A DNA stretch of 64,000 bases from Patescibacteria group bacterium. Lineage in GTDB: Bacteria; Patescibacteriota; Microgenomatia; UBA8517. The stretch lies in assembly GCA_026416845.1 (NCBI GenBank), contig JAOAEL010000001.1:117940-181939 (forward strand), in the 5' to 3' direction. This document shows, piece by piece, positions 50,749-64,000 of this stretch. Position 1 is the stretch's first letter, and each line of letters opens with the position of its first letter. The position numbers and the translations under genes were made by a program. The notes under the pieces were generated by a model that had not been told where the DNA came from, ran no database searches, and saw nothing but the letters and a program-made list of their open reading frames with translations.

Positions 50749-51192
50749 TTAACTACACCAACAACCTCTTTTATCATCTTTTGCGTTAACCCAAAAAAAC
50801 CAACATCTACCTATATGCATTTCGAGCTCATACTTTGCCAAAAACGCATAGTCGTTTATTTCAAATTCAATCGCATGCGCAAGAGATAAACTAATAAGCG
50901 TTTGAGTGTATATTTTGTCTCTCAGGACTGGTTTCCTTTTGTATATTTTCTTTTTCCAAAATATCTGGCACTTTTTTATTGCGATACATAATAACAACAG
51001 TCACAAAACCAACTTCGCAAGCGCCACATCAATTATCTTTGCGCAAAAATCAGTACCAACAATAAGCTTGTAAACGCTTAACGGATCATCTTTTATAAAT
51101 AAAAATATTTCATTAATAACTCCAGCAAGCGACATCTGACCTTTTGTGGAACTAAAAAAGGCGTTTTTTGGGCTTAACTCAGAGTATAACAA
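50749..51192 (-). pseudogene. Possible gene remnant: 146-codon reading frame interrupted by a single in-frame TGA (51001-51003)
   Basis: ORF-track entries 51001-51192 and 50749-50997 are in the same frame and are separated only by one TGA. There are no recognisable motifs. They lie inside a 767-bp non-coding stretch. Confidence 0.15.
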
Positions 51193-52192: not shown

Positions 52193-52456
52193 TTAGGACC
52201 TAAGCAACAAAGAAAATACAACAGTTACACCTAAAATCGCGATCATAATATACTCTGCCACAATAGAAATCTGCAAATCCCCTTTTGTGTGATGGTGAAC
52301 AATCCCCCAAGCTACATAACCAGTCGCCATAGCTATCACAACAGCCATTCTTGCGCCTAAATCGTAAGAAAACACATTAAATCCAATTACTCCAGCCAAA
52401 AGCACACCAAAAAGTGGAAGATATTGTTGAGCATATTTTGCTATTTTTTTCTTCAT
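52193..52456 (-). CDS. Small membrane protein (2-3 TM), unknown function
   Basis: 87 aa with hydrophobic stretches LPLFGVLLAGVIGF and IMIAILGVTVVFSLLL. Co-directional with the CAP-domain gene. Confidence 0.3.
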   Translation of the reverse strand: MKKKIAKYAQQYLPLFGVLLAGVIGFNVFSYDLGARMAVVIAMATGYVAWGIVHHHTKGDLQISIVAEYIMIAILGVTVVFSLLLRS

Positions 52457-52496: not shown

Positions 52497-53447
52497 TTAA
52501 AGAATCTCTCCAGCCTTGGCTACAATAATAATTACTATAATCATGACCAAAAAAGCAAAATGCGCAAAATTCTTGCCCCCTATACGCGGAACTTTTCTAA
52601 CTGCAATTAAAGCGCCATCAATAACTGTAGCAATAGACAATAAACCAACTACAATCAAGGAAACATTCTTTGTAGTGTCAAAAGGAGAAATCTTCAAAGA
52701 TGAATCTTTCTCAACCAAACCCGTAGAAGATGCGACATATACTACAACAGGTTCTGTTTCGCTTGGCGTATGAGTGGGAGTTGGAATAATAGTTGGACTT
52801 TTGACAGCAGTTTCAAATTTTGATTCAGGCAGTTTTTTCGAAACGCTATTTTTTTGAGCAACCGGCAATTGGGATGAAGATGCTTGAGTCCCAAAAAGCT
52901 GGACAATTATTGTAGTGTCAACTCCATTTAAATCACCTTCAACAACAGCAACGCCAATTTCCGTGTATTTTGGAGAAAGCAAATTTTCCTTGTGCGAAGG
53001 GGAAGCCATCCAAGCATCAACAGCAGAAACTGCATTGGCAAAATCGCGTGCCAAATTCTCGCCGGCATATTTGTAATTGTATCCAACCAAATTAAAAAAA
53101 TACCAAGGCTGAGTCCCATCAGGAGCCACATGCGCCCAATAATCATTGGCTAGCATATGCTCACCTTTTTTTCTGGCGGCTTCGGCAAGCAATGGGTTAT
53201 TCTTAAGCTCGGGCAAACCATTAGCCACACGCTTTTGATTAGAAATAGAAATCACTTCAGTAACAGATATTTGAGAAGCATACCCCAAAACACGAGCTCC
53301 TGTTTGCGGCAAGAAACTAATTATGGCTTGAACCAAAAGCAAAAATGCCAAAACATAAGTAAGAAAGCTAAAATGCAAAACTCTTGCTCTTTGATTGTTG
53401 CTATGATGTGGAGTGAAATAATGCAAAAAAAGGCTAACAAGTATCAT
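52497..53447 (-). CDS. CAP/SCP-domain (YkwD-like) protein with an N-terminal TM, a Pro/Thr-rich linker and a C-terminal membrane anchor
   Basis: NDYWAHVAPDGTQPWYFFNLVGYNYKYAGENLA...WMASPSHKENLLSPKYTEIGVAV is a CAP-domain signature, followed by the PTIIPTPTHTPSETEP linker and C-terminal hydrophobic helices. Confidence 0.7.
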   Translation of the reverse strand: MILVSLFLHYFTPHHSNNQRARVLHFSFLTYVLAFLLLVQAIISFLPQTGARVLGYASQISVTEVISISNQKRVANGLPELKNNPLLAEAARKKGEHMLANDYWAHVAPDGTQPWYFFNLVGYNYKYAGENLARDFANAVSAVDAWMASPSHKENLLSPKYTEIGVAVVEGDLNGVDTTIIVQLFGTQASSSQLPVAQKNSVSKKLPESKFETAVKSPTIIPTPTHTPSETEPVVVYVASSTGLVEKDSSLKISPFDTTKNVSLIVVGLLSIATVIDGALIAVRKVPRIGGKNFAHFAFLVMIIVIIIVAKAGEIL

Positions 53448-53672: not shown

Positions 53673-54860
53673 ATGGTTTGTACCCTTAATTTACGGTTTG
53701 TTTTTCTCATGAAGCAAATATTACTGTCCATCGCCACAATAGCCGCAATAGGAAGCATATCTTTTGGCTTGTCCTCGGCTTTTTTTTCTGACACAGAAAC
53801 TTCGCAGGCAAACTCTTTGACTGCTGGATCTTTTGACCTTTTGTTAAACGGAGGCAACAACACTTCCGCGATTGTGAACATTAATGATTTAAAACCGGGA
53901 GACAATCAAATAGTAGAAAAATCTTTGCGAATAGAAGATAACTCGGGTTATGTTTTCATGCACATAAAAGATCTGTTACCTTCTCAAGGCACGCAAACAG
54001 AACCTGAGATCTTAGAAGAAAATGGCACTCCAAAATTTGACATACAAAACTACATCAAATACGATCTTGAAGCAAACAACCAAACAATCATTTCATTAGA
54101 CAACCAAGTTTTTCTGCCGGAAGTCGTCTCTTGCTGGATACCTCTTGGAGAATTGCCAGGACAAACAAATGTTTCTGTAAAACAAAGTTTTCACTTGGAT
54201 CCGAACGTCACAAATTGGGCACAAGGAGACACGCTTAGCTTTGTTGAAGAATTTTATTCTGTTCAGAGCAGAAACAACTCCAATCCAGCTCCGCCAGTTT
54301 CTTTGACTGGAAGAATTTGGGATAAAAACATCAAAAAGTGTGTAAATTGTCCATCTGGGATTCTTTTTGCCGACGGAGTAGACAGCGCAAATACCAAACA
54401 AGGCACTTTGAAAAACGGCAATCCAATAACAGATCCAAATAGAACAAATCCTTTAAACGCAACAGGACCTAATAACTGGGTAAACGGCACAGGAACAAAC
54501 TTTTTCTCACTGGGAAAAGGAGGGTATATTACTCTGACTTTTTCATCGCCGGTGGTTAACGAACTAGGCAATGATCTTACCTTCTACGAAGCCACAAATG
54601 GCAGAGCGACATATCCTGAAGAGAAAGCGGATGTTTATGTAAGTTTTGATGGAGTCAGCTACTTTTTCATTGGCACAGTAACAAGTGAACCGGGTCCCGG
54701 TGGAGACGGCATTATGGAGTTAGATATCGCGCCTTCGGGATTGCCTTCCATAAAATATGTGCGTTTAATAGACACGACAAATTTCACTCCTCACGCAAAC
54801 AACGCTGACGGCTACGACATTGACGCGGTAAAAGCAAAAAGCGCATGTCTAAAACAATGA
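53673..54860 (+). CDS. Secreted TasA/camelysin-like protein with a SipW-cognate-class signal peptide (alternative start at 53709, MKQILLS)
   Basis: N-terminus ...LLSIATIAAIGSISFGLSSAFFSDTETSQANSLTAGSFDL carries the A-FFSDTETS hallmark of SipW-dependent signal peptides. A NINDLKPGDNQIVEKSLRIEDN core motif is shared with the two paralogs. Confidence 0.7.
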   Translation: MVCTLNLRFVFLMKQILLSIATIAAIGSISFGLSSAFFSDTETSQANSLTAGSFDLLLNGGNNTSAIVNINDLKPGDNQIVEKSLRIEDNSGYVFMHIKDLLPSQGTQTEPEILEENGTPKFDIQNYIKYDLEANNQTIISLDNQVFLPEVVSCWIPLGELPGQTNVSVKQSFHLDPNVTNWAQGDTLSFVEEFYSVQSRNNSNPAPPVSLTGRIWDKNIKKCVNCPSGILFADGVDSANTKQGTLKNGNPITDPNRTNPLNATGPNNWVNGTGTNFFSLGKGGYITLTFSSPVVNELGNDLTFYEATNGRATYPEEKADVYVSFDGVSYFFIGTVTSEPGPGGDGIMELDIAPSGLPSIKYVRLIDTTNFTPHANNADGYDIDAVKAKSACLKQ

Positions 54861-55012
54861 ACAAAAAATCAAAATGGAACAAAAAAGATTTATCAATTTT
54901 CTTAAGTTAAAAAACTTTATCATTTTTGTCACTTCCAAGTCAAAAGCTTAAAGTGGCATGATGACAAAGTTTTTGCAAATCAAAAAAAGGGGGTGAAAAA
55001 AATTAAGTTTAT

Positions 55013-55933
55013 ATGAAAAAGATTTTAATAAGTTTGTTAACAATTGGCGCGGTTGGAAGCCTTGCTTTCGGAGCAACATCGGCATTTTTCTCTGATACAG
55101 AAACGTCAACAAACAACAAAATAGTCGCTGGGAAACTAGATCTGAAAGTTGATAGCACTGCCCATTATGCTGGAATGGTATGTAAAAATAATGTCTGGAC
55201 AGATGAAGATAATGATCAAACAAACAATCCAAGACCTGAACTTCTAGGTAAAACTTGTTCGGGCACTTGGACATCAACCGATCTTGGTCCAACAAATCAG
55301 TTTTTCAATTTGTCAGATGTGAAACCGGGCGACACTGGAGAAAATACGCTCAGTCTTACGGTTTTGGACAATGATGCTTGGGCATGCATTGTAATGAAAA
55401 ATCTTAAAAATGATGAAAATCAATGTACAGAGCCTGAATCTGACCCGCAAAGCGGCAACGACACAACATGCGGAAACGATCCGGTTGGAGCAGGACTGGG
55501 CGAACTTGCTCAAAATCTGTACTTTACAGCATGGTTGGACCAGGGGAATCAAGCAGGTTGGCAAAATTCAGATAATGACAATACAAATGACGATCCGGGT
55601 GAAGGAGATAACAAGTGGCAAGGTCCAACACTTGAACCTTTGTTATTCTCAAACCAACAAGGTCCCGCGTCTGATGTCCTAAATGGAAAAGTATACGCTC
55701 TGGCTGATTCCACAAACGGGAATTATTTAGCTGGTAGCGTTACTAATTACATCGGGCTTCAGTGGTGCGCTGGACAAATGACTATATCTGGAAACACTAT
55801 CAGTTGTAACGGGGCGACAATGGGCAATAATACCCAAACCGATTCCTTGACAGCGGATGTTTCCATTTATGTGGAACAACGCAGAAACAATCCGGCATTT
55901 AAATGCGCCGGGGCGAATCTGCTTCCTAATTAA
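55013..55933 (+). CDS. Secreted TasA/camelysin-like protein with a SipW-cognate-class signal peptide (paralog 2)
   Basis: MKKILISLLTIGAVGSLAFGATSAFFSDTETSTNNKIVAGKLDLKVD, followed by FNLSDVKPGDTGENTLSLTVLDN. Confidence 0.7.
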   Translation: MKKILISLLTIGAVGSLAFGATSAFFSDTETSTNNKIVAGKLDLKVDSTAHYAGMVCKNNVWTDEDNDQTNNPRPELLGKTCSGTWTSTDLGPTNQFFNLSDVKPGDTGENTLSLTVLDNDAWACIVMKNLKNDENQCTEPESDPQSGNDTTCGNDPVGAGLGELAQNLYFTAWLDQGNQAGWQNSDNDNTNDDPGEGDNKWQGPTLEPLLFSNQQGPASDVLNGKVYALADSTNGNYLAGSVTNYIGLQWCAGQMTISGNTISCNGATMGNNTQTDSLTADVSIYVEQRRNNPAFKCAGANLLPN

Positions 55934-55952
55934 TGATTGTTTTTCCAAAAAC

Positions 55953-55982
55953 CCCTCGGGCGAAATTTGTTTCGCCCGAGGG
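55953..55982. terminator. 13-bp perfect GC-rich hairpin (CCCTCGGGCGAAA / TTTG / TTTCGCCCGAGGG) between TasA-like gene 2 and sipW; candidate attenuator or partial terminator
   Basis: Seen directly. The stem is exceptionally GC-rich for this genome. The + strand has no U-tract after it (AAAGGGAG...), but the minus-strand reading is followed by GUUUUUGG. Confidence 0.45.
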
Positions 55983-56062
55983 AAAGGGAGAATAGTAAAA
56001 CAAAAAAAATTGCAATATATCAAATTTAAAAAATTAGGCACAAAAGTTTATGAGATCAGAAT

Positions 56063-57292
56063 ATGAAATACTTTAGGAACTTTTTTTATGTTTTCAAAAA
56101 CGCAAGTTTAATTTTGCTCTTCACAGCGGCTTCATTAATAACTCTTTCACATTTTGGGTATTTAAAAACAATTAAACCATACATTGTTCAATCAGGCTCT
56201 ATGGAACCGTCAATACCAACAGGAAGCGTGATCTTTTCTCTCCATTCCAAACTTTATCAGCCGGGAGACATAATCACTTTTTTTGCAAACGGTGATCCTA
56301 AAACTGTTGTTACACACAGGCTCAATTTCAAAATTTTTAAAGACAATCAAACTATATACATCACCTCTGGAGACGCAAACGAAGACTTTGACAAATGGGA
56401 AGTGAGATATGAGCATATAGTTGGCAAAGTTGTGGCAATCATACCACATCTTGGGCATGTGATCGATTTTGCCAAAACACCACAAGGATTTATAGCTCTT
56501 GTGGTTGTTCCTGCAACAATCGTAATCTATGAAGAACTAAAAAACCTCCTGCGAGAAATTGGCAAGCTCGTTTTGGCAATCAAAATTTTTTTTAAAAAGA
56601 AAAAGGAAGAAAATTCAAGTCTATTTAATTTCGCAAAAAGCGTCAATCTAAATAGAATTTTTGTTTTTGTGCCAATTTTAGGAGTGTTTGTCTTTATAAC
56701 CGCAAATTCCGGAGGATACTTTTTAGATACAGAAAAAAGCGCAGGGAACGTTATAGGAGTTGCAACATCGTATAATTCGCCAACAATAACACCTACCAAC
56801 TCAAACTCACCCTCGCCAACCATCTCTCCTACAAGCACACTACCACCCACAAACACAATAACCGCCACAGCAACGCCAACAACAACTCCCACAATTTCTC
56901 CTATGGTTAAGCTAAACGAAGCCGCGCCTGCAACTAATCCCGAATGGGTAGAAATTTACAACACATACCCTACTGCCGATTTTCTTAAAAATTACTGGCT
57001 TGACGATGACACTAGTTTTACAAGCGACTCAGGAAACTCCCCAAAAGTGCTAATGTCATCGCTTGACACATCGAACACTTTATTCCCAACCATAGACCTT
57101 ACAAATCCAATTTTTAACAATACCGGAGATTTTATAGTTATTTTTGATAACTTGGGAAATCTTGTGGACTCGGTTAATTACACCAGTAATTTTGGCACTA
57201 AATCCATCGGTCGAGAAATTGACGGAACAGGAATATGGAAATTCCCTTGCGCTAATTCAACAAAAGGAGCAAGCAACAACACAAAATGTTAA
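56063..57292 (+). CDS. sipW: SipW-type (archaeal/ER-type) signal peptidase I fused through a Pro/Thr-rich linker to a C-terminal lamin-tail domain (LTD)
   Basis: TM helix, then catalytic-Ser box QSGSMEPSIPTGSVIF, His box TVVTHRL, second TM GFIALVVVPATIVIY, linker TPTNSNSPSPTISPTSTLPPTNTITATATPTTTPTISP, then LNEAAPATNPEWVEIYN...GDFIVIFDNLGNLVDSVNY, which matches the LTD consensus. Confidence 0.8.
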   Translation: MKYFRNFFYVFKNASLILLFTAASLITLSHFGYLKTIKPYIVQSGSMEPSIPTGSVIFSLHSKLYQPGDIITFFANGDPKTVVTHRLNFKIFKDNQTIYITSGDANEDFDKWEVRYEHIVGKVVAIIPHLGHVIDFAKTPQGFIALVVVPATIVIYEELKNLLREIGKLVLAIKIFFKKKKEENSSLFNFAKSVNLNRIFVFVPILGVFVFITANSGGYFLDTEKSAGNVIGVATSYNSPTITPTNSNSPSPTISPTSTLPPTNTITATATPTTTPTISPMVKLNEAAPATNPEWVEIYNTYPTADFLKNYWLDDDTSFTSDSGNSPKVLMSSLDTSNTLFPTIDLTNPIFNNTGDFIVIFDNLGNLVDSVNYTSNFGTKSIGREIDGTGIWKFPCANSTKGASNNTKC

Positions 57293-58311
57293 AAAAGATT
57301 TTTCTATTATCAATATCGACAGCGGCAATTTTAACAGTGATCTTTTGGCACAAAAACACGACAAAAAATGTCTACGCAATAGATCCTCTGATAATAACAT
57401 ACAACAATTCGCCCACACCAAATCCAGTTTTTAATGTGGCAAATTTCTTACCCGGAGACAATAAGATCGAGAAAATTAAAGTAAAAAACAATTTGCCAAG
57501 CGGAAGCTTCGGAGTCTCGGTGGATGGGATATTGGATCAAGAACAAAAAAACTTGGCAGAAATACTACAAATTACTATCACAGAAGTTGGTTTTGGGGAT
57601 ATTTATGGAGGTTCAACTGGCAAAAAAACTCTTAAACAGTTTCTGAACTCGCCACCAATTAACTTGGGAGTATTCCCATCAGGAAGTGAGAAAGAATATG
57701 AATACAAAATATTTTTCCCACATGAATCAGGCAACGAATATAAAAACGGGCATGTTGTCTTTACGCTAATTTTCAACAATTTTATAACAATTGATCTTCC
57801 AAAAGAATGCGCTCACTTGGCAAATCAAATTGTCAACGTAATTGAAGGCACTGAAGGCAATGACAACATACATTCAACCTACCTTAGCGACCTAATACTT
57901 GCCAAAGGAGGTAACGATAAAATCAGAGCTTCAAGCGGAAGCGATTGTATTGTAGCCGGAGACGGCAATGACACAATAGACGCAGGCACAGGCAATGAAG
58001 TTATTTTAGGCGGAGGAGGAAATGACAACATAAGAGGTGGTACAGGAAACGACACTATCTATGGAGGAAGCGGAAATGACAGAATCGACGCGGGAAGCGG
58101 AGACGATGTAGTCTATGGCGATGATGGAGATGACAACATAGAAGGCGGAAGCGACAAAGATAAACTATATGGCGGCAAAGGCAAAGATGACATAAGAGGC
58201 GGAAGCAACAACGACCTTTTAGACGGAGGAGAGGATTTTGACAAATTAAATGGAAATTCCGGCCAAGACACGTGCAAATTCGGCGAAGTGCTTAGTTCTT
58301 GTGAACTGTAA
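57286..58311 (+). CDS. Secreted TasA-like core protein with C-terminal RTX (hemolysin-type) calcium-binding repeats
   Basis: Signal anchor MLKKIFLLSISTAAILTVIFW; FNVANFLPGDNKIEKIKVKNN core shared with the two TasA-like paralogs; then 12 tandem GGxGxDxxx nonapeptides (GGNDKIRAS ... SNNDLLDGG). ATGTTAA overlap with the sipW stop. Confidence 0.7.
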   Translation: MLKKIFLLSISTAAILTVIFWHKNTTKNVYAIDPLIITYNNSPTPNPVFNVANFLPGDNKIEKIKVKNNLPSGSFGVSVDGILDQEQKNLAEILQITITEVGFGDIYGGSTGKKTLKQFLNSPPINLGVFPSGSEKEYEYKIFFPHESGNEYKNGHVVFTLIFNNFITIDLPKECAHLANQIVNVIEGTEGNDNIHSTYLSDLILAKGGNDKIRASSGSDCIVAGDGNDTIDAGTGNEVILGGGGNDNIRGGTGNDTIYGGSGNDRIDAGSGDDVVYGDDGDDNIEGGSDKDKLYGGKGKDDIRGGSNNDLLDGGEDFDKLNGNSGQDTCKFGEVLSSCEL

Positions 58312-59082: not shown

Positions 59083-59122
59083 AAAAAACCTCCTGCCTAA
59101 GCGTAGGGGGTTTTTTATTTTT
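59083..59122. terminator. Bidirectional rho-independent terminator between the convergent 58471(+) and sortase(-) genes
   Basis: AAAAAA-CCTCCTGC-CTAA-GCGTAGGGGG-TTTTTTATTTTT: an 8-bp stem (with G-U pairs) flanked by an A-run on one side and a T-run on the other. Confidence 0.55.
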
Positions 59123-59129
59123 AGATAAA

Positions 59130-59681
59130 CTAGTCGACGGACAAAACAACAACCAATCTCTTGGAATCTTTATAGCCGCTACAAGTATACAAGGTAAGCT
59201 TTTTTTCTTCGCTCGATGGCGCAATAATTTTTGTATCCGTTGGCAAAACTTCCAAAACATCATCAACTTTATATTCAAACCAAGTTTTATTAGTTAAAAC
59301 AAAAACAGAGTCTCCTTTTTTTATATACTTTAAATTGCCAAACAAATTATCTTTTGCATGCCCAAATATGACCACATTGCCAATTTCTCCTGGATATGCG
59401 GACCCTACACCCCATCCAGCTTTATCATCAAACACCTCCCAATAACCACTTTTTACAAAAGATACTTGGACATTAACATTTAGTTTAAGATCTGGAATAA
59501 GTATTTTTTGCGGGATTTTTTCAGCGTCAATTTCATTGATTAAAGCAAATTCTTCCAGTGTTGCAACTTGATTAACAGATAAAACTGAAGCGTCCGCTTT
59601 TGGTTTAAACAAAAGCAACAAAACGCCAAGGGCAAAAAGACAAATGCCTATTGTAATTTTAGAAGGGTAATTTATTCTCAT
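59130..59681 (-). CDS. Sortase (cysteine transpeptidase), with an N-terminal membrane anchor
   Basis: Catalytic His in VIFGHAKDNLFGN, TLxTC-type Cys in KLTLYTCSG, Arg in RLVVVLS. The start is taken at the second Met (MRINYPSK); 59708 is also possible. Confidence 0.8.
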   Translation of the reverse strand: MRINYPSKITIGICLFALGVLLLLFKPKADASVLSVNQVATLEEFALINEIDAEKIPQKILIPDLKLNVNVQVSFVKSGYWEVFDDKAGWGVGSAYPGEIGNVVIFGHAKDNLFGNLKYIKKGDSVFVLTNKTWFEYKVDDVLEVLPTDTKIIAPSSEEKKLTLYTCSGYKDSKRLVVVLSVD

Positions 59682-60810
59682 TTTCACTCGCTTTTCCCGC
59701 CGAATCAATTATCATACCCAAACCCAAAACCAAAAACAAAATTCCAAACAAATAATTTAGATCCAAACTTTTTTCGCTTGAAGTTTTTGAAAGGCCCAAA
59801 ATTTCTCCGCCGCCAATGGCATTTTCGCCCAAAAAACTGGTTTTGCTTAAAAAATTTGCGTTATTGTTGTTTGCAGATCCGTCGTTTGGATTTTTAATGA
59901 TTGAATCTTCAGGAACAGTCGGAGGGTCATCAGGATCATCCCCATTATCAAAAAAACAACAATTAAAACTAATAAAATTTGAATTTATATAATCATTTCT
60001 TAAAAGAATATCTAAAAAAATATCGCCTGTAATTATTGCCGAATCTCCCAAATTGCCGCCAATGAAATTTTCACCACTATTTGCGTCAACAAAAACTTCA
60101 TTTAGAATCACTGAACTATTCTCAACAAAAACATTATTTTTTAAATTTTTGAAATTGTTTGCGCTACTCCCACCGACATAAGCGTTGTCAATAAACCTGA
60201 AACTTGAAGCATCTTCTGAAAGATTGGCAGGCAAACTAGAAATAGATGAATTAATTGGACCATTTTTTACAGATGTTACAACTTTTACATCCCCTGTTGT
60301 TATTTTTGTATTGCGAGAATTATCATTTGCTTTATTGAGACCAGTGTTTGCAACCCCAACAATTTTAGTTTTAATTACAGCGCTATTTTGAGAAACAAAA
60401 TTATTTGACAAATTGCTTGAAGAACTAACTGTATTTGTTGAATTAGAACCATTGTTATTAATGTTAACCTGCTGGTTTATCTTGGCAGTTTCACAACAAT
60501 TATCTTTAAAACCATTTTGATTTGATAAATTAATCGCGGTCTGACTAATTTTCGCGTCGCCAGTTTTTACGTTAACTTCATCTCCACTTTGATCAATTAA
60601 ATTTGATCCGGTGTTTGTATTAGAAAAGACATCGTTTTGAATAGATGAGTTGTTTGTTTGCAAAACATTTACCGAATTTGACAATTGAACAATCGCCTGA
60701 CTTGAAGAATCGGAACCGTTATCAGATATCGTCAACTCATACCCAAGCGCACACTTTGGTTGACATAAAAATATGAAAAAAAAGATTAGAAAAACAAAAA
60801 ATTTAGACAT
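59659..60810 (-). CDS. Secreted repeat protein, TGDA family (paralog)
   Basis: Signal peptide MSKFFVFLIFFFIFLCQPKCALG. Repeats ISDNGSDSS...NTNTGSNLIDQSGDEVNVKTGDAKISQ and NNGSNSTNTV...ANTGLNKANDNSRNTKITTGDVKVV. Has a CC pair and a C-terminal hydrophobic segment without LPxTG. Confidence 0.6.
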   Translation of the reverse strand: MSKFFVFLIFFFIFLCQPKCALGYELTISDNGSDSSSQAIVQLSNSVNVLQTNNSSIQNDVFSNTNTGSNLIDQSGDEVNVKTGDAKISQTAINLSNQNGFKDNCCETAKINQQVNINNNGSNSTNTVSSSSNLSNNFVSQNSAVIKTKIVGVANTGLNKANDNSRNTKITTGDVKVVTSVKNGPINSSISSLPANLSEDASSFRFIDNAYVGGSSANNFKNLKNNVFVENSSVILNEVFVDANSGENFIGGNLGDSAIITGDIFLDILLRNDYINSNFISFNCCFFDNGDDPDDPPTVPEDSIIKNPNDGSANNNNANFLSKTSFLGENAIGGGEILGLSKTSSEKSLDLNYLFGILFLVLGLGMIIDSAGKASENENKLPF

Positions 60811-60872: not shown

Positions 60873-63221
60873 TCACTTTCTCGAGAACATCGCAAGTATA
60901 GCGTTTTTGTTTTTTGCAATAAATAAACCCGTGAAAATTGGGATTAATGTCAGAAGCCATGCAAGATTTATGTTGATAGTTTTTTTCTCATTTCTGATTT
61001 CAGCACTTTCAACAAAGGCGTCTACATCACCAACAATCCCAGTTTCGCTTTGATCTTTAGAACCTGAAAATGCCAAAACTGATTTGTTGGAATTACTAGC
61101 TTTTTTCGATATCGCTTTATTTGAAAAAATCTTTTTATTTGATTCTTCCTTCATATTTGTAACTTCATTATAAACCTGAAAACCGGAAGTGTTTGGGTTT
61201 GCAAGAGTGCTACTTTTGTCTTTTTCGGCTACTCCTCCGCGTCCACTATCGTTAACTGAAGATGGCTTCGAACCAACATAATCAGGAGAGACAAAATTAC
61301 CAACCCAACTGCCAAACACATTTACAACTGTCACGAATAATCTGCCGCTACCGACTATATTGTTATTTACAAAGTTAACCAAATTGGCAACAATGTTTGC
61401 GTCTCCGGTAACAATATTTGTATTGCCACCGGTATTTTTGCTTGCCTGATTTTTGCCAGTATTAGCCGAAAGATTCAAATTATTAGTGACATTTGCAGTG
61501 TTTGATTGAACAATTGTATTGTTTGCGATTGAAGAGCTAAAAGCATTGTTAAATGAATTTGCGCCATTGCCATTATTTGAAGCATAAATTTCTCCATTTT
61601 CATCAACTAAAAACTCAATCCCATTTGATCCAGCCAAATTTGCGCCTTCAGGAGACCCCAATATTCTACCAACCCAATTTCCAGCCTGATTAATAAGAAC
61701 AAGCCACCAATCCCCGCCAACTATATTTGTGTTTGCAACATTGATAACTTGCGCAGTGACATTTGCATTCCCTGAATTAACAGTGTTATTGCCATCTGTA
61801 TTTTTACTCACTTCGTTTTCACCCGTGTTGGCGTCAAAAAACAAGTTGTTGTTTATATTGGCATTATTAAACTGATACAACTGATCGTTTGAACTGACAC
61901 TTGCATCCGCAGTGTTTGTAGAGTGTGCGCCATTGCCTGTATTTTGAACATTGCCAGACAAAAGACAACAAGGCAAACCAAATCCGAAAGGAGCAATTAT
62001 GTCTCCAACCAAATTGCCAAAAATATTTACAACACCATAAATCACATTGCCAGCTATGTTATTGTTTACAAAAGTCAAAGCGTTTGCAGAAACATTCGCA
62101 TCGCCAGTGGTAATTGTCACATCTCCGCCAGTATTTTTATCCGCATAATTTTTGCCGGTATTGGAATCAAGCTTAAGTGTGTTCAAAACCACAGCATCGT
62201 TAGTCTGAAATTTATTTGTGTTTAGCGCATAATCAAGCAAAGCGTTATTCGAAGAATTCGCGCCATTTTGATGGTTGGCAACATTACCTCCACCCAAAGT
62301 TGAACAGTTAACTATGCACGCATTGCCAAAATCCAAAACAATATCCCCAATGTGATCATCTTCAACATTAAACTCTGCAATAACCACCCCATCAACATTT
62401 GTGTTGACAGAAGTAATAATAGTGCCAGTTGTATTTGCGTTGCCTGTTTTAATGTTTACATTGCCAACATTTTTGGAAGCGGAATTTCCGCCAGTGTTAG
62501 TATCTTGAGAAACTGAATTTATAACAACAGCTTTATTGTCTTGAATTGTGTTTGAATTATTTTCAGAAACAAAAGCTCCATTGTTTGCAGAACCAGATCC
62601 ATTGCCTTCATTAACAACAGCAGAAGCACCACCTGCCAAGCCGGTAGGCACTGCCGATAAATTGCTGTTTGCAACCACAGCTCCGGTGACAGAATTTGTC
62701 GCATTGCCAGTTCTTAGATCAGTTTTACCCGAATTTCCATCTGAGTTTTGTCCCCCTGTAGAATTATCAACAGCCAAACTTTTAGGAGAAACTGAAGAAG
62801 ACTGCTGGTTCTCAGCAGGTGAACTTGAATTATCTGAAGCGGCAAAATCAGAGTTAATTGATCTATCTCTTTTTGTTTTTTCATTTGAACTTTCTGAATT
62901 TTTTGGTTTGGAATTATTACCAGATTGATCACCTTGAGAAGAACCAGAATTTTGGCTATCTGGCAAATTATTTAGACTGCCAGAGGGAATGGTAGGAGCA
63001 GTCGGGGCAACAGGAGGAATTGGAGCCGCAGGTGGAGTTGGAGACAAAGGCGGAGATGGCGCGTTGGGAGCCATAGGCGCCGACGGAGCAACCGGAGCGC
63101 TTGGCACTGATGGAATTTCAGAAGCCAAAACCCCTGCCACTTGCACAAATAAAATTACAAATATAGTAAAAAGGGCAATTATTCTTTTAGTTATACTTTT
63201 TATAAATTTTATAAATTGCAT
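60873..63221 (-). CDS. Large (782 aa) secreted surface protein: Pro-rich N-terminal tract, four or five ~110-aa TGDA-family repeats, and a C-terminal hydrophobic anchor
   Basis: Signal peptide, then PSVPSAPVAPSAPMAPNAPSPPLSPTPPAAPIPPVAPTAPTIPSG. Repeats such as LDSNTGKNYADKNTGGDVTITTGDANVSANALTFVNNNIAGNV and LSANTGKNQASKNTGGNTNIVTGDANIVANLVNFVNNNIVG. C-terminal LAWLLTLIPIFTGLFIAKNKN. Confidence 0.65.
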   Translation of the reverse strand: MQFIKFIKSITKRIIALFTIFVILFVQVAGVLASEIPSVPSAPVAPSAPMAPNAPSPPLSPTPPAAPIPPVAPTAPTIPSGSLNNLPDSQNSGSSQGDQSGNNSKPKNSESSNEKTKRDRSINSDFAASDNSSSPAENQQSSSVSPKSLAVDNSTGGQNSDGNSGKTDLRTGNATNSVTGAVVANSNLSAVPTGLAGGASAVVNEGNGSGSANNGAFVSENNSNTIQDNKAVVINSVSQDTNTGGNSASKNVGNVNIKTGNANTTGTIITSVNTNVDGVVIAEFNVEDDHIGDIVLDFGNACIVNCSTLGGGNVANHQNGANSSNNALLDYALNTNKFQTNDAVVLNTLKLDSNTGKNYADKNTGGDVTITTGDANVSANALTFVNNNIAGNVIYGVVNIFGNLVGDIIAPFGFGLPCCLLSGNVQNTGNGAHSTNTADASVSSNDQLYQFNNANINNNLFFDANTGENEVSKNTDGNNTVNSGNANVTAQVINVANTNIVGGDWWLVLINQAGNWVGRILGSPEGANLAGSNGIEFLVDENGEIYASNNGNGANSFNNAFSSSIANNTIVQSNTANVTNNLNLSANTGKNQASKNTGGNTNIVTGDANIVANLVNFVNNNIVGSGRLFVTVVNVFGSWVGNFVSPDYVGSKPSSVNDSGRGGVAEKDKSSTLANPNTSGFQVYNEVTNMKEESNKKIFSNKAISKKASNSNKSVLAFSGSKDQSETGIVGDVDAFVESAEIRNEKKTININLAWLLTLIPIFTGLFIAKNKNAILAMFSRK

Positions 63222-63353: not shown

Positions 63354-64000
63354 CTACCCCATAAGGAATTCCAAAAGATCTCTCAAATTAAACGAAATGT
63401 TTAAATTGAAACCATACATTGGAAATTCCCATTCAGGAGTTTCACCATAAACATTGGAATTACCACCGTTTGTAACTTCCACATAGCTTTCGGCATCACC
63501 GGTTTTGATATAAGGATCTGATCCATCATAACCAGTTCCTTTCTTGGATTCGTTATAACCAGTGCCTGCGTCAGCATAAACTAAATTGTCGACACCGTAA
63601 CCGCCATTTGATTGAAAAACGCCAAGAGAGTCATCAAAGACTGCTTCAATGTCGTTTCTCGAATCATAACCATTTCCATGGATTTTTGCCAAAACATCAA
63701 AAAGACATCCGCAATCAACGTCTGCCCAATTGAAGTTTGTCATTGTGTCAACAACCACATCCACAGTGGCATCTCCTGTCTCTATGACAAAGTCACCACC
63801 TGTGTTTTTGTTTGCTTTATTGGAACCAGTTCCGGCATCAACATCAACTTTGTTGTAAACAGAAGCTGAGTTGTTTTGCACAACATTTAGATCGTGACCA
63901 AAGTCTAGATCCAAATCGTTTCTGCTATCAGCGCCGTTTCCAACAACCCAAGCGCTAAGAGTTTTGGCTCCGTTTCCGTTAGCACCAACTCTTGCAGAAT
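63354..64000 (-). CDS. Partial CDS (C-terminal part; N-terminus lies beyond the window end): secreted repeat protein, TGDA family
   Basis: The frame is open to the window edge: ...NGNGAKTLSAWVVGNGADSRNDLDLDFGHD is upstream of the ORF-track TTG start. Repeats DAGTGSNKANKNTGGDFVIETGDATVDVVV and DAGTGYNESKKGTGYDGSDPYIKTGDAESYVEV, plus a CGC pair. Confidence 0.55.
   Translation of the reverse strand, partial: SARVGANGNGAKTLSAWVVGNGADSRNDLDLDFGHDLNVVQNNSASVYNKVDVDAGTGSNKANKNTGGDFVIETGDATVDVVVDTMTNFNWADVDCGCLFDVLAKIHGNGYDSRNDIEAVFDDSLGVFQSNGGYGVDNLVYADAGTGYNESKKGTGYDGSDPYIKTGDAESYVEVTNGGNSNVYGETPEWEFPMYGFNLNISFNLRDLLEFLMG

Follow-up and report, generated by a model that had tools for sequence, protein, structure and literature searches.

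A Microgenomates sortase probably paired with its adjacent repeat protein through a non-canonical LSKTS-type sorting signal

The DNA analysed here, referred to as the window, is a 64-kb stretch of contig JAOAEL010000001.1 (positions 117,940 to 181,939; assembly GCA_026416845.1) from a Patescibacteria group bacterium, with a base composition of ~33% GC, densely packed genes and a single sortase gene. On the minus strand, the genes around this sortase follow the order ~420-amino-acid (aa) paralogue, 782-aa paralogue, 383-aa protein and sortase, the first three encoding members of one repeat-protein group named here after their shared TGDA motif. The initial annotation described a sortase without an obvious substrate, on the grounds that none of the adjacent secreted proteins ends in LPxTG followed by a hydrophobic, basic tail. 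This observation was borne out, as no open reading frame (ORF) of the 64-kb window has a canonical LPxTG plus helix ending, but the claim that the locus holds neither a pentapeptide nor a substrate had to be abandoned, given that the 383-aa protein carries LSKTS at residues 340-344. We propose that the sortase and its 383-aa neighbour are probably a dedicated enzyme-substrate pair, in which the substrate is read through a non-canonical signal of the LSKTS type.

The 183-aa sortase ORF scored 85.4 bits against the Pfam model PF04203 (Sortase; peptidase C60; cutoff 26.6) and 59.3 bits against the generic NCBIfam sortase model TIGR01076 (cutoff 39.35). It is 100% identical to the NCBI protein P0001, annotated 'sortase [Patescibacteria group bacterium]' and encoded on a contig of 212,575 bp. 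We took the ATG at position 59681 as its start because 14 homologues align over their full length; the same start is used in the homologues and in the NCBI record. As the initial annotation had stated, the His/Cys(TLxTC)/Arg triad is complete: His108 (FGHAK), Cys167 (TLYTCSG) and Arg175 (SKRLV) are invariant among the 14 aligned homologues, and the triad is kept in the sortases of all 60 related loci described below. The AlphaFold2 (AF2) model, with a mean predicted local distance difference test score (pLDDT) of 81.7, comprises an N-terminal membrane helix at residues 8-24, a disordered linker at residues 26-49 and a catalytic beta-barrel, which matched many solved sortase structures with a Foldseek probability of 1.00; 8 residues follow Arg175. 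The ORF is a genuine membrane-anchored sortase with an intact triad.

The C-terminus of the 383-aa protein reads ...GGGEILG-LSKTS-SEKSLD-LNYLFGILFLVLGLGMII-DSAGKASENENKLPF and has the tripartite layout of a cell-wall sorting signal, namely a pentapeptide directly preceded by ILG (ILG-LSKTS, residues 337-344), a hydrophobic helix of 18 residues after a 6-residue spacer, and a charged tail of 15 aa. The N-terminal signal peptide was likewise read from the sequence. Compared with LPxTG, Ser replaces Pro at P3 and Ser replaces Gly at P1'. The initial annotation had already described a hydrophobic helix followed by an acidic tail here, and the tail indeed has a net charge of -1. In a regular-expression scan, the 383-aa protein was the only substantial ORF of the window with an exported-type pentapeptide and helix tail. 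The other matches comprised five 61-97-aa segments outside the ORF list without other support, stretches inside membrane helices, and two listed ORFs of 63 aa (51001-51192) and 87 aa (52193-52456). Neither Pfam nor NCBIfam has a model that matches the 383-aa protein, and the curated libraries contain none for its tail or its repeat.

A scan of one genome per GTDB species yielded 60 loci with relatives of the window sortase, mostly from Woese-, Gottesman- and Levybacteria (Microgenomates), in 50 of which a co-directional gene abuts or overlaps the sortase gene. The pattern [VILM]xG[LA][STAP] followed by a hydrophobic stretch, sought within the last 65 residues, was present in 42 of the 50 sortase-abutting genes, compared with 9 of the 830 other ORFs of the same loci (Fisher p = 1.2e-54). 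Several of these 9 background matches are evident substrates themselves, such as one carrying VLGASTELPATG and a helix. Among the eight exceptions, the sorting signal of locus L006 (9450-9900) lies in another frame, within an acidic repeat, so that an assembly frameshift is probable; in L026 (9700-9960), the gene stops directly after LGLSATSSK and no helix is encoded downstream. The motif and helix are thereby tied to the gene next to the sortase.

The logo of 42 unique tails from the window's clade reads [PG]-x-[VI]-[LI]-G-L-[S38 A5 G2 P1]-x-[T37 A9]-[S27 G12 A6 H1]-[S/G], with an invariant Leu and a helix core that begins 1-11 residues after the motif. The natural variants LAPTG, LAATG and LPSAS fall in the same register as LSxTS. 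At the level of sequence, an invariant Leu, then Thr and then a small residue is the pattern expected of the P4, P1 and P1' positions of a sortase signal.

Homologues of the 383-aa protein are numerous and of equal length. The initial annotation had suggested that the C-termini of TGDA-family proteins, aligned across species, might disclose a conserved cryptic motif, and a MAFFT alignment disclosed one, the LSxT[SGA]/LPxTG column: approximately half of the sequences end in ILGLSxTS and a helix, and the other half have, in the same column, (V/I)LPATG followed by a helix and RLRSGRSP. In a profile search of 1.84 billion cluster representatives, the family numbered 3335 members, and 883 reached E <= 1e-30. 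Among the best matches of this profile, 153 full-length sequences were entered in a census of tails, which comprised 99 LPxTG-type tails, 34 of the G-LSxT[SGA] type, 19 other variants (LAATG, LSATN, LPISG and others) and one sequence (P0019) in which the motif is present and the tail is truncated without a helix. Because most members carry LPxTG-type or LSxT[SGA]-type tails, the 383-aa family is a sortase-substrate family; judged from the alignment and the census, LSKTS is a derived replacement of LPxTG.

The type of tail varied together with the sortase clade. LSxTS-type homologues adjoin sortases of the window's clade (YTCSG), whereas all six LPxTG-type homologues with a sortase in reach are followed by an enzyme of another clade (FAHSS...[IL][IL]QTCTP[IL]GT). 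In phmmer comparisons with the window enzyme, this QTCTP clade scored 37 bits and the distant YTCSG-clade sortase of locus L040 scored 84 bits. LPxTG-type loci have the same gene order as the window, namely ~420-aa paralogue, ~730-790-aa 'INLAW' paralogue, ~385-aa protein and sortase, often followed by a CAP-domain protein. In a neighbour-joining tree of 66 catalytic domains, the sortases paired with LPxTG, with GQVLGA[ST]T-[YML]AxTG and with G-LSxT[SGA], the last including the window enzyme, were each monophyletic. In our view, this co-variation argues more strongly than any other result that the enzyme recognises the altered pentapeptide and that its neighbour is the cognate substrate. The initial annotation had named a non-canonical sorting motif as one of its options, and this option gained support: LSKTS stands where most family members have LPxTG, and the motif tracks the sortase clade.

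Both systems occur together in locus L022 (5042-7979), where a window-type sortase with the substrate tail VLGLSATH lies beside a convergent second sortase (LTLMTCWPAG) that adjoins an LPDTG protein. As each of the two sortases has its own type of tail, the systems coexist there as separate pairs, which indicates orthogonal sorting pathways within one Levybacteria genome.

Classification by hidden Markov models (HMMs), which the initial annotation had advised, placed the window enzyme in the sortase family but reached the threshold of no class from A to F or GN. Class E gave the top-scoring class-level NCBIfam model (NF033747, 53.2 bits against a cutoff of 160), followed by class C (NF033745, 49.5 against 160), class D (NF058671, 46.5 against 140, and NF033746, 46.0 against 165; the motif also lacks Pro), class GN (TIGR03784, 35.1 against 158) and class F (NF033748, 33.8 against 166). 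No class A model appeared among the NCBIfam matches at E <= 0.01, and, while class A substrates are LPxTG proteins scattered over the genome, the substrate predicted here is adjacent and non-LPxTG. Searches of PDB sequences, profiles and folds found structures of classes A, C, D and E approximately equidistant (E ~1e-10, identity 21-30%), with C. perfringens SrtD (4d70) as the best single-sequence match. Class E enzymes recognise LAxTG through a conserved Tyr in the beta3/beta4 loop; this loop of the window enzyme contains Tyr96, at a position that is not conserved across the clade (Y, F, I, L or N), and the clade's signal is LSxT[SGA], with LAxTG in a few members. Assignment to a class from A to F or GN was rejected, as the HMM, PDB sequence, PDB profile and fold searches favour none, and other sortases of the same bacterial group likewise match no class. 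Because it falls below the sequence thresholds of all tested classes, the enzyme is filed under none of them; it represents a sortase lineage outside the present classes, found in candidate-phyla (Microgenomates-type) bacteria, whose recognition motif is altered.

The initial annotation had also raised the idea that the sortase polymerises fibre subunits in the manner of a pilin-type enzyme. In such a class C-like reading, TGDA subunits would be joined head to tail, or the 383-aa protein linked to a lysine of the 782-aa, ~420-aa or 196-aa paralogue, to form a covalent fibre. We consider this quite improbable, even though the locus encodes four secreted repeat proteins that are paralogues of one another, the top sequence and fold matches include solved class C sortases, the 383-aa model resembles fibre and solenoid proteins (curli, FapC, RTX), and a semi-conserved GKK lies just outside the 782-aa helix. 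A DP[FWY] lid and a C-terminal membrane helix are hallmarks of pilin-polymerising class C sortases. The window enzyme has no DP[FWY] motif in residues 25-60, the linker being modelled as disordered, and no C-terminal membrane helix, and its class C score is less than a third of the cutoff. Moreover, every pilin needs a sorting signal, which only one of the four paralogues possesses. No invariant or near-invariant Lys was found in the 383-aa family, nor any Lys conserved at >=85% in the 782-aa family, and the locus has one sortase, without a second 'housekeeping' enzyme. A further reading, in which the window enzyme is a general housekeeping sortase with substrates elsewhere in the genome, canonical LPxTG or other, and the LSKTS tail is merely a membrane anchor, appears very improbable. 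The 64 kb inspected belong to a contig of >= 212 kb, which leaves room for such substrates, but neither the enrichment of the motif in the abutting gene (42/50 versus 9/830) nor its strict co-variation with the sortase clade would be expected if the neighbour were irrelevant. In addition, conservation of the P1 Thr and of the small residue at P1' exceeds what a plain anchor would need, and the second, different sortase beside the LPDTG protein in L022 suggests that another enzyme handles LPxTG where both occur.

An alternative that retains the same pair but changes its chemistry is unlikely, though less so than the preceding two. Here, the (Q)VLG-[LA]-[ST] module would be cleaved in another register, or the acceptor would be water, a glycopolymer, a lipid or another protein. 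The locus adjoins a very large block of glycosyltransferase genes, and 'VLGA[ST]T' occurs 1-3 residues before bona fide LPxTG or xAxTG motifs of other Patescibacteria tails and before INLAW in some 782-aa orthologues. Within the near clade, the residues conserved behind the Leu (T at +3, S/G/A at +4) nonetheless fit cleavage as LSxT|S, a register shared by the LAPTG, LAATG and LPSAS variants. Sortases that have an N-terminal anchor and only one substrate attach it to peptidoglycan by default. Furthermore, peptidoglycan synthesis genes and a Gram-positive-type envelope have been reported for Microgenomates (PMC7143001).

Several points weigh against a dedicated pair that acts through LSKTS as we propose. 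The tail of the 383-aa protein is not basic; the median tail charge in the window's clade is +3, values <=0 occur in 6 of 40 tails, and the window protein has a Lys 5 residues past the helix. The LPXTG anchor model TIGR01167 does not match the window tail even at E <= 10; when six tails were submitted to the curated sorting-signal models, only the distant-clade YAETG tail matched, to TIGR01167 and exactly at its cutoff of 15.9, and the rest gave nothing. Cleavage might instead follow the register L-G-L-S|x, aligned to the 'VLGA[ST]T' module, as an alignment of GQVL-PATG with GQVL-GLSD is feasible in which L-G-L-S occupies P4-P1; the T|S scissile bond and the peptidoglycan acceptor are assigned by analogy with other sortases, and the structural model of the 383-aa protein is of low confidence (pLDDT 58.8). 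Further substrates may also lie beyond the 64-kb window. The initial annotation had listed substrates outside the window as one solution, which is unnecessary for the main substrate; additional ones are possible because the analysis covered 64 kb of the genome.

Taken as a dedicated pair, the two proteins would function as follows. The 383-aa TGDA-repeat protein would be exported by Sec and retained in the membrane through its C-terminal helix, where the membrane-anchored sortase would recognise the LPxTG-like ILG-LSKT|S. By analogy with other sortases, Cys167 would cleave after Thr343 to form a thioacyl intermediate, which would be transferred to an amine acceptor, most likely a peptidoglycan precursor. 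The predicted outcome is a possibly beta-solenoid-like repeat protein covalently displayed on the wall, which would stand beside the membrane-anchored 782-aa paralogue and two unanchored secreted paralogues. The steps after recognition follow general sortase enzymology (PMC5148588). A candidate sortase substrate peptide predicted from the window tail is GEILGLSKTSSEK.

Variations on the signal were seen in several places. The second LSKTS copy of the 383-aa protein (Table 1) lies 19 residues upstream of the aligned copy, has no ILG prefix and does not align with the motif of the homologues; duplicated motif modules also occur in a distant clade (GQVLGASTEGQVLGATTYAETG). Ahead of LPxTG or [YML]AxTG, at a distance of 1-3 residues, many Patescibacteria sorting signals have a further conserved module, (G)QVLGA[ST]T (L022 7239-7979, L032 303-2714, L049 10873-13071 and the upstream genes of L039-L055), which is sometimes duplicated, as in the distant-clade example just given. 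A similar VLGxxS/T precedes the INLAW anchor in some 782-aa orthologues.

Table 1 Features of the window discussed in the text
Feature	Position	Strand	Remarks
Envelope-glycosylation block	200-42600	mostly -	very long, co-directional
CAP/YkwD-domain protein	52497-53447	-	N-terminal 'HSNNHKAK', two C-terminal helices
Second putative fibre system	53673-58311	+	adjoins sortase region
Two TasA/camelysin-like proteins	53673-54860, 55013-55933	+	SipW-type signal peptides
SipW-type signal peptidase	56063-57292	+	fused to Lamin-tail domain
RTX-repeat protein	57286-58311	+	ends ...CEL
Secreted TGDA paralogue, 196 aa	58471..59061	+	two repeats, ends ...TGGHNYL, without anchor
14-bp hairpin	59083..59116	.	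flanking A-run and T-run; from consensus scan
Sortase, 183 aa	59130..59681	-	PF04203, TIGR01076, invariant triad, AF2 fold
TLYTCSG with Cys167	59175-59195	-	
Predicted cognate substrate, 383 aa	59659..60810	-	directly upstream of sortase, overlaps its start by 23 nucleotides
Predicted sorting signal of 383-aa protein	59662..59802	-	adjacency enrichment, tail logo, alignment with LPxTG
Hydrophobic helix of 383-aa protein	59707-59760	-	
LSKTS of 383-aa protein	59779-59793	-	
Second LSKTS copy (FLSKTSF)	59836..59850	-	residues 321-325
TGDA paralogue, 782 aa	60873..63221	-	signal peptide, Pro-rich segment, ~5 TGDA repeats, KKTININLAW + helix + basic tail
Juxtamembrane (G)KKxxxINLAW motif	60957-60977	-	
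Further TGDA paralogue, 3' part	63354..64000	-	frame open to window end; ~415-430 aa in related loci

The genes that accompany the pair are listed in Table 1. The 782-aa and 383-aa proteins are paralogues that share a ~90-aa repeat, 'NG.xS.N...Q.N.A.I.N...NTG.N...TGDA'. The C-terminus of the former consists of a hydrophobic helix and KNKN, as the initial annotation had noted, and INLA and one Pro of the helix are invariant across 17 orthologues. All orthologues (L002-L036, L061-L066) have the juxtamembrane motif (G)KKxxxINLAW, whichever sortase clade lies beside them. INLAW was considered as an alternative sortase signal and rejected, because KKxxINLAW and its helix are unchanged beside the LPxTG-type sortase clade and the motif is thus the same beside both. 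The 782-aa protein is probably a type I protein of the same surface module that is held in the membrane by a stop-transfer helix, rather than a sortase substrate, and its INLAW motif may serve either as a plain anchor or to signal to other machinery. The ~420-aa paralogue has no helix anchor and ends in the conserved amphipathic segment FNLNISFNLRDLLEFLMG, which may be an interaction or secretion signal; the corresponding acidic-aromatic pattern PEWEFPxxGFNLNxSFxLxDLLxxLG recurs in L004 (5135-6385), L012 (5228-6529) and other loci. The 196-aa protein matches the 383-aa protein with a BLASTP E value of 1e-13, and its gene is convergent with the sortase gene, a position conserved in many related loci. 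The hairpin between these two genes likely terminates transcription in both directions, in which case the minus-strand operon would end with the sortase gene; terminator-like sites as a whole were, at 6 against a shuffled expectation of 4.3 in the region, not above expectation in this consensus scan. The 23-nucleotide overlap between the 383-aa and sortase genes, together with the terminator-like hairpin after the sortase, suggests that the two are co-expressed. The promoter scan was uninformative (17 sites against 16.3 expected).

We tentatively extend this picture to a conserved, undescribed surface-fibre or surface-layer module of Microgenomates, composed of the sortase, the LSxTS protein and three TGDA paralogues, as a possible wall-anchored assembly of chaplin- or curli-like character. 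One of the paralogues would be anchored by the INLAW helix, another would end in the amphipathic FNLNxSF..LL, and the third would be short and secreted. The wall-linked protein might then serve as the base or nucleator for the unanchored beta-solenoid paralogues, comparable to long and short chaplins or to CsgB and CsgA of curli. Fold matches of the low-confidence 383-aa model (SufD 8.5, RsaA S-layer 6.5, RTX 6.2, curli CsgA 6.1, FapC 5.3) are no more than a hint of fibrous or sheet-forming surface proteins. Pairs of adjacent cysteines (NCCE and NCCF; residues ~105-106 and 284-285) end the repeats in the 383-aa family, where C284/C285 are nearly invariant, and have a counterpart in C418/C419 of the 782-aa family; these conserved pairs may form vicinal or inter-repeat disulfides.

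Other envelope-related genes lie nearby. The second putative fibre system comprises the TasA/camelysin-like proteins, the SipW-type signal peptidase and the RTX-repeat protein of Table 1, and several related loci likewise have RTX and 196-aa paralogue genes next to the sortase. Most related loci, of either sortase clade, keep the CAP/YkwD gene a short distance downstream of the sortase. In the glycosylation block, a YfhO-like protein is encoded together with at least seven PMT/PMT_2-like GT-C membrane proteins (510-600 aa), which are paralogues of one another and in several cases score only at or below the Pfam cutoff; in related loci, the same sortase cluster is bordered by GT2/GT4 glycosyltransferase genes. 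These genes point to surface proteins or wall polymers that are heavily glycosylated.

Among known systems, class E sortases (SrtE1/SrtE2 of Streptomyces coelicolor; LAxTG; long chaplins) resemble the window system in their non-proline P3 residue. Some members of the window's clade pair with LAPTG or LAATG, and a sister clade pairs with [YML]AxTG; moreover, one wall-anchored member occurs among secreted repeat paralogues, in parallel to long versus short chaplins (PMC5148588). The window system differs from class E in having Ser instead of Ala at P3 and mostly Ser at P1', in its low class E score (53 bits against 160), in its occurrence in Patescibacteria instead of Actinobacteria, and in its single adjacent substrate. 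Class D and the GN 'marine' type (LPxTA; TIGR03784) likewise combine a small sortase with an apparently dedicated adjacent substrate, a variant pentapeptide and a small non-Gly P1' residue; the window motif, however, keeps neither Pro nor the class D/GN P1' context, and the scores are 46 against 165 and 35 against 158, respectively. The sister CPR (candidate phyla radiation) clade (FAHSS...QTCTP) shares the operon position, substrate family, host group and flanking genes (the INLAW protein upstream and the CAP-domain protein downstream) of the window sortase, from which it is distinguished by its 37-bit phmmer score, an insertion after the catalytic His, a different beta7/beta8 loop and a substrate tail with canonical LPxTG and RLRSGRSP. 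Trueperella pyogenes has predicted LSXTG tails, again with Ser at P3, and lacks a class A sortase (PMC7350218). It is an actinobacterium with a class E housekeeping sortase, many substrates and Gly kept at P1', and its authors reported no evidence of a sortase acting on LSXTG (PMC7350218). Approximately 90% of known sorting signals have Pro at P3 (PMC5148588). In the searchable part of the literature, we found neither the LSxT[S/G] signal nor the TGDA-repeat operon described, nor any account in which such a signal is paired with this clade of sortases; papers on CPR bacteria only mention that sortases occur, and a sortase family is reported as near-ubiquitous in Microgenomates (PMC6744442).

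Collectively, our findings largely explain the apparent orphan sortase of this locus, and what is left of interest is its rewired specificity and the unannotated surface-protein module. The new element is a sortase clade whose predicted signal has Ser at P3 and mostly Ser at P1', while its sister clade keeps LPxTG on the same protein family. The two clades together constitute a clean comparative system for the determinants of sortase specificity and are possibly a source of orthogonal ligation enzymes. If the surface-module reading is true, the exchange of both clade and motif in a single orthologous operon would amount to a natural experiment in the rewiring of sortase specificity. Because the probable cognate, co-transcribed substrate carries a non-LPxTG signal, annotation pipelines limited to LPxTG or TIGR01167 would overlook such substrates in much of the Microgenomates. 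The 3335 representatives of this conserved, unannotated set of repeat proteins are probably a major wall-attached component of the surface of ultra-small CPR bacteria.

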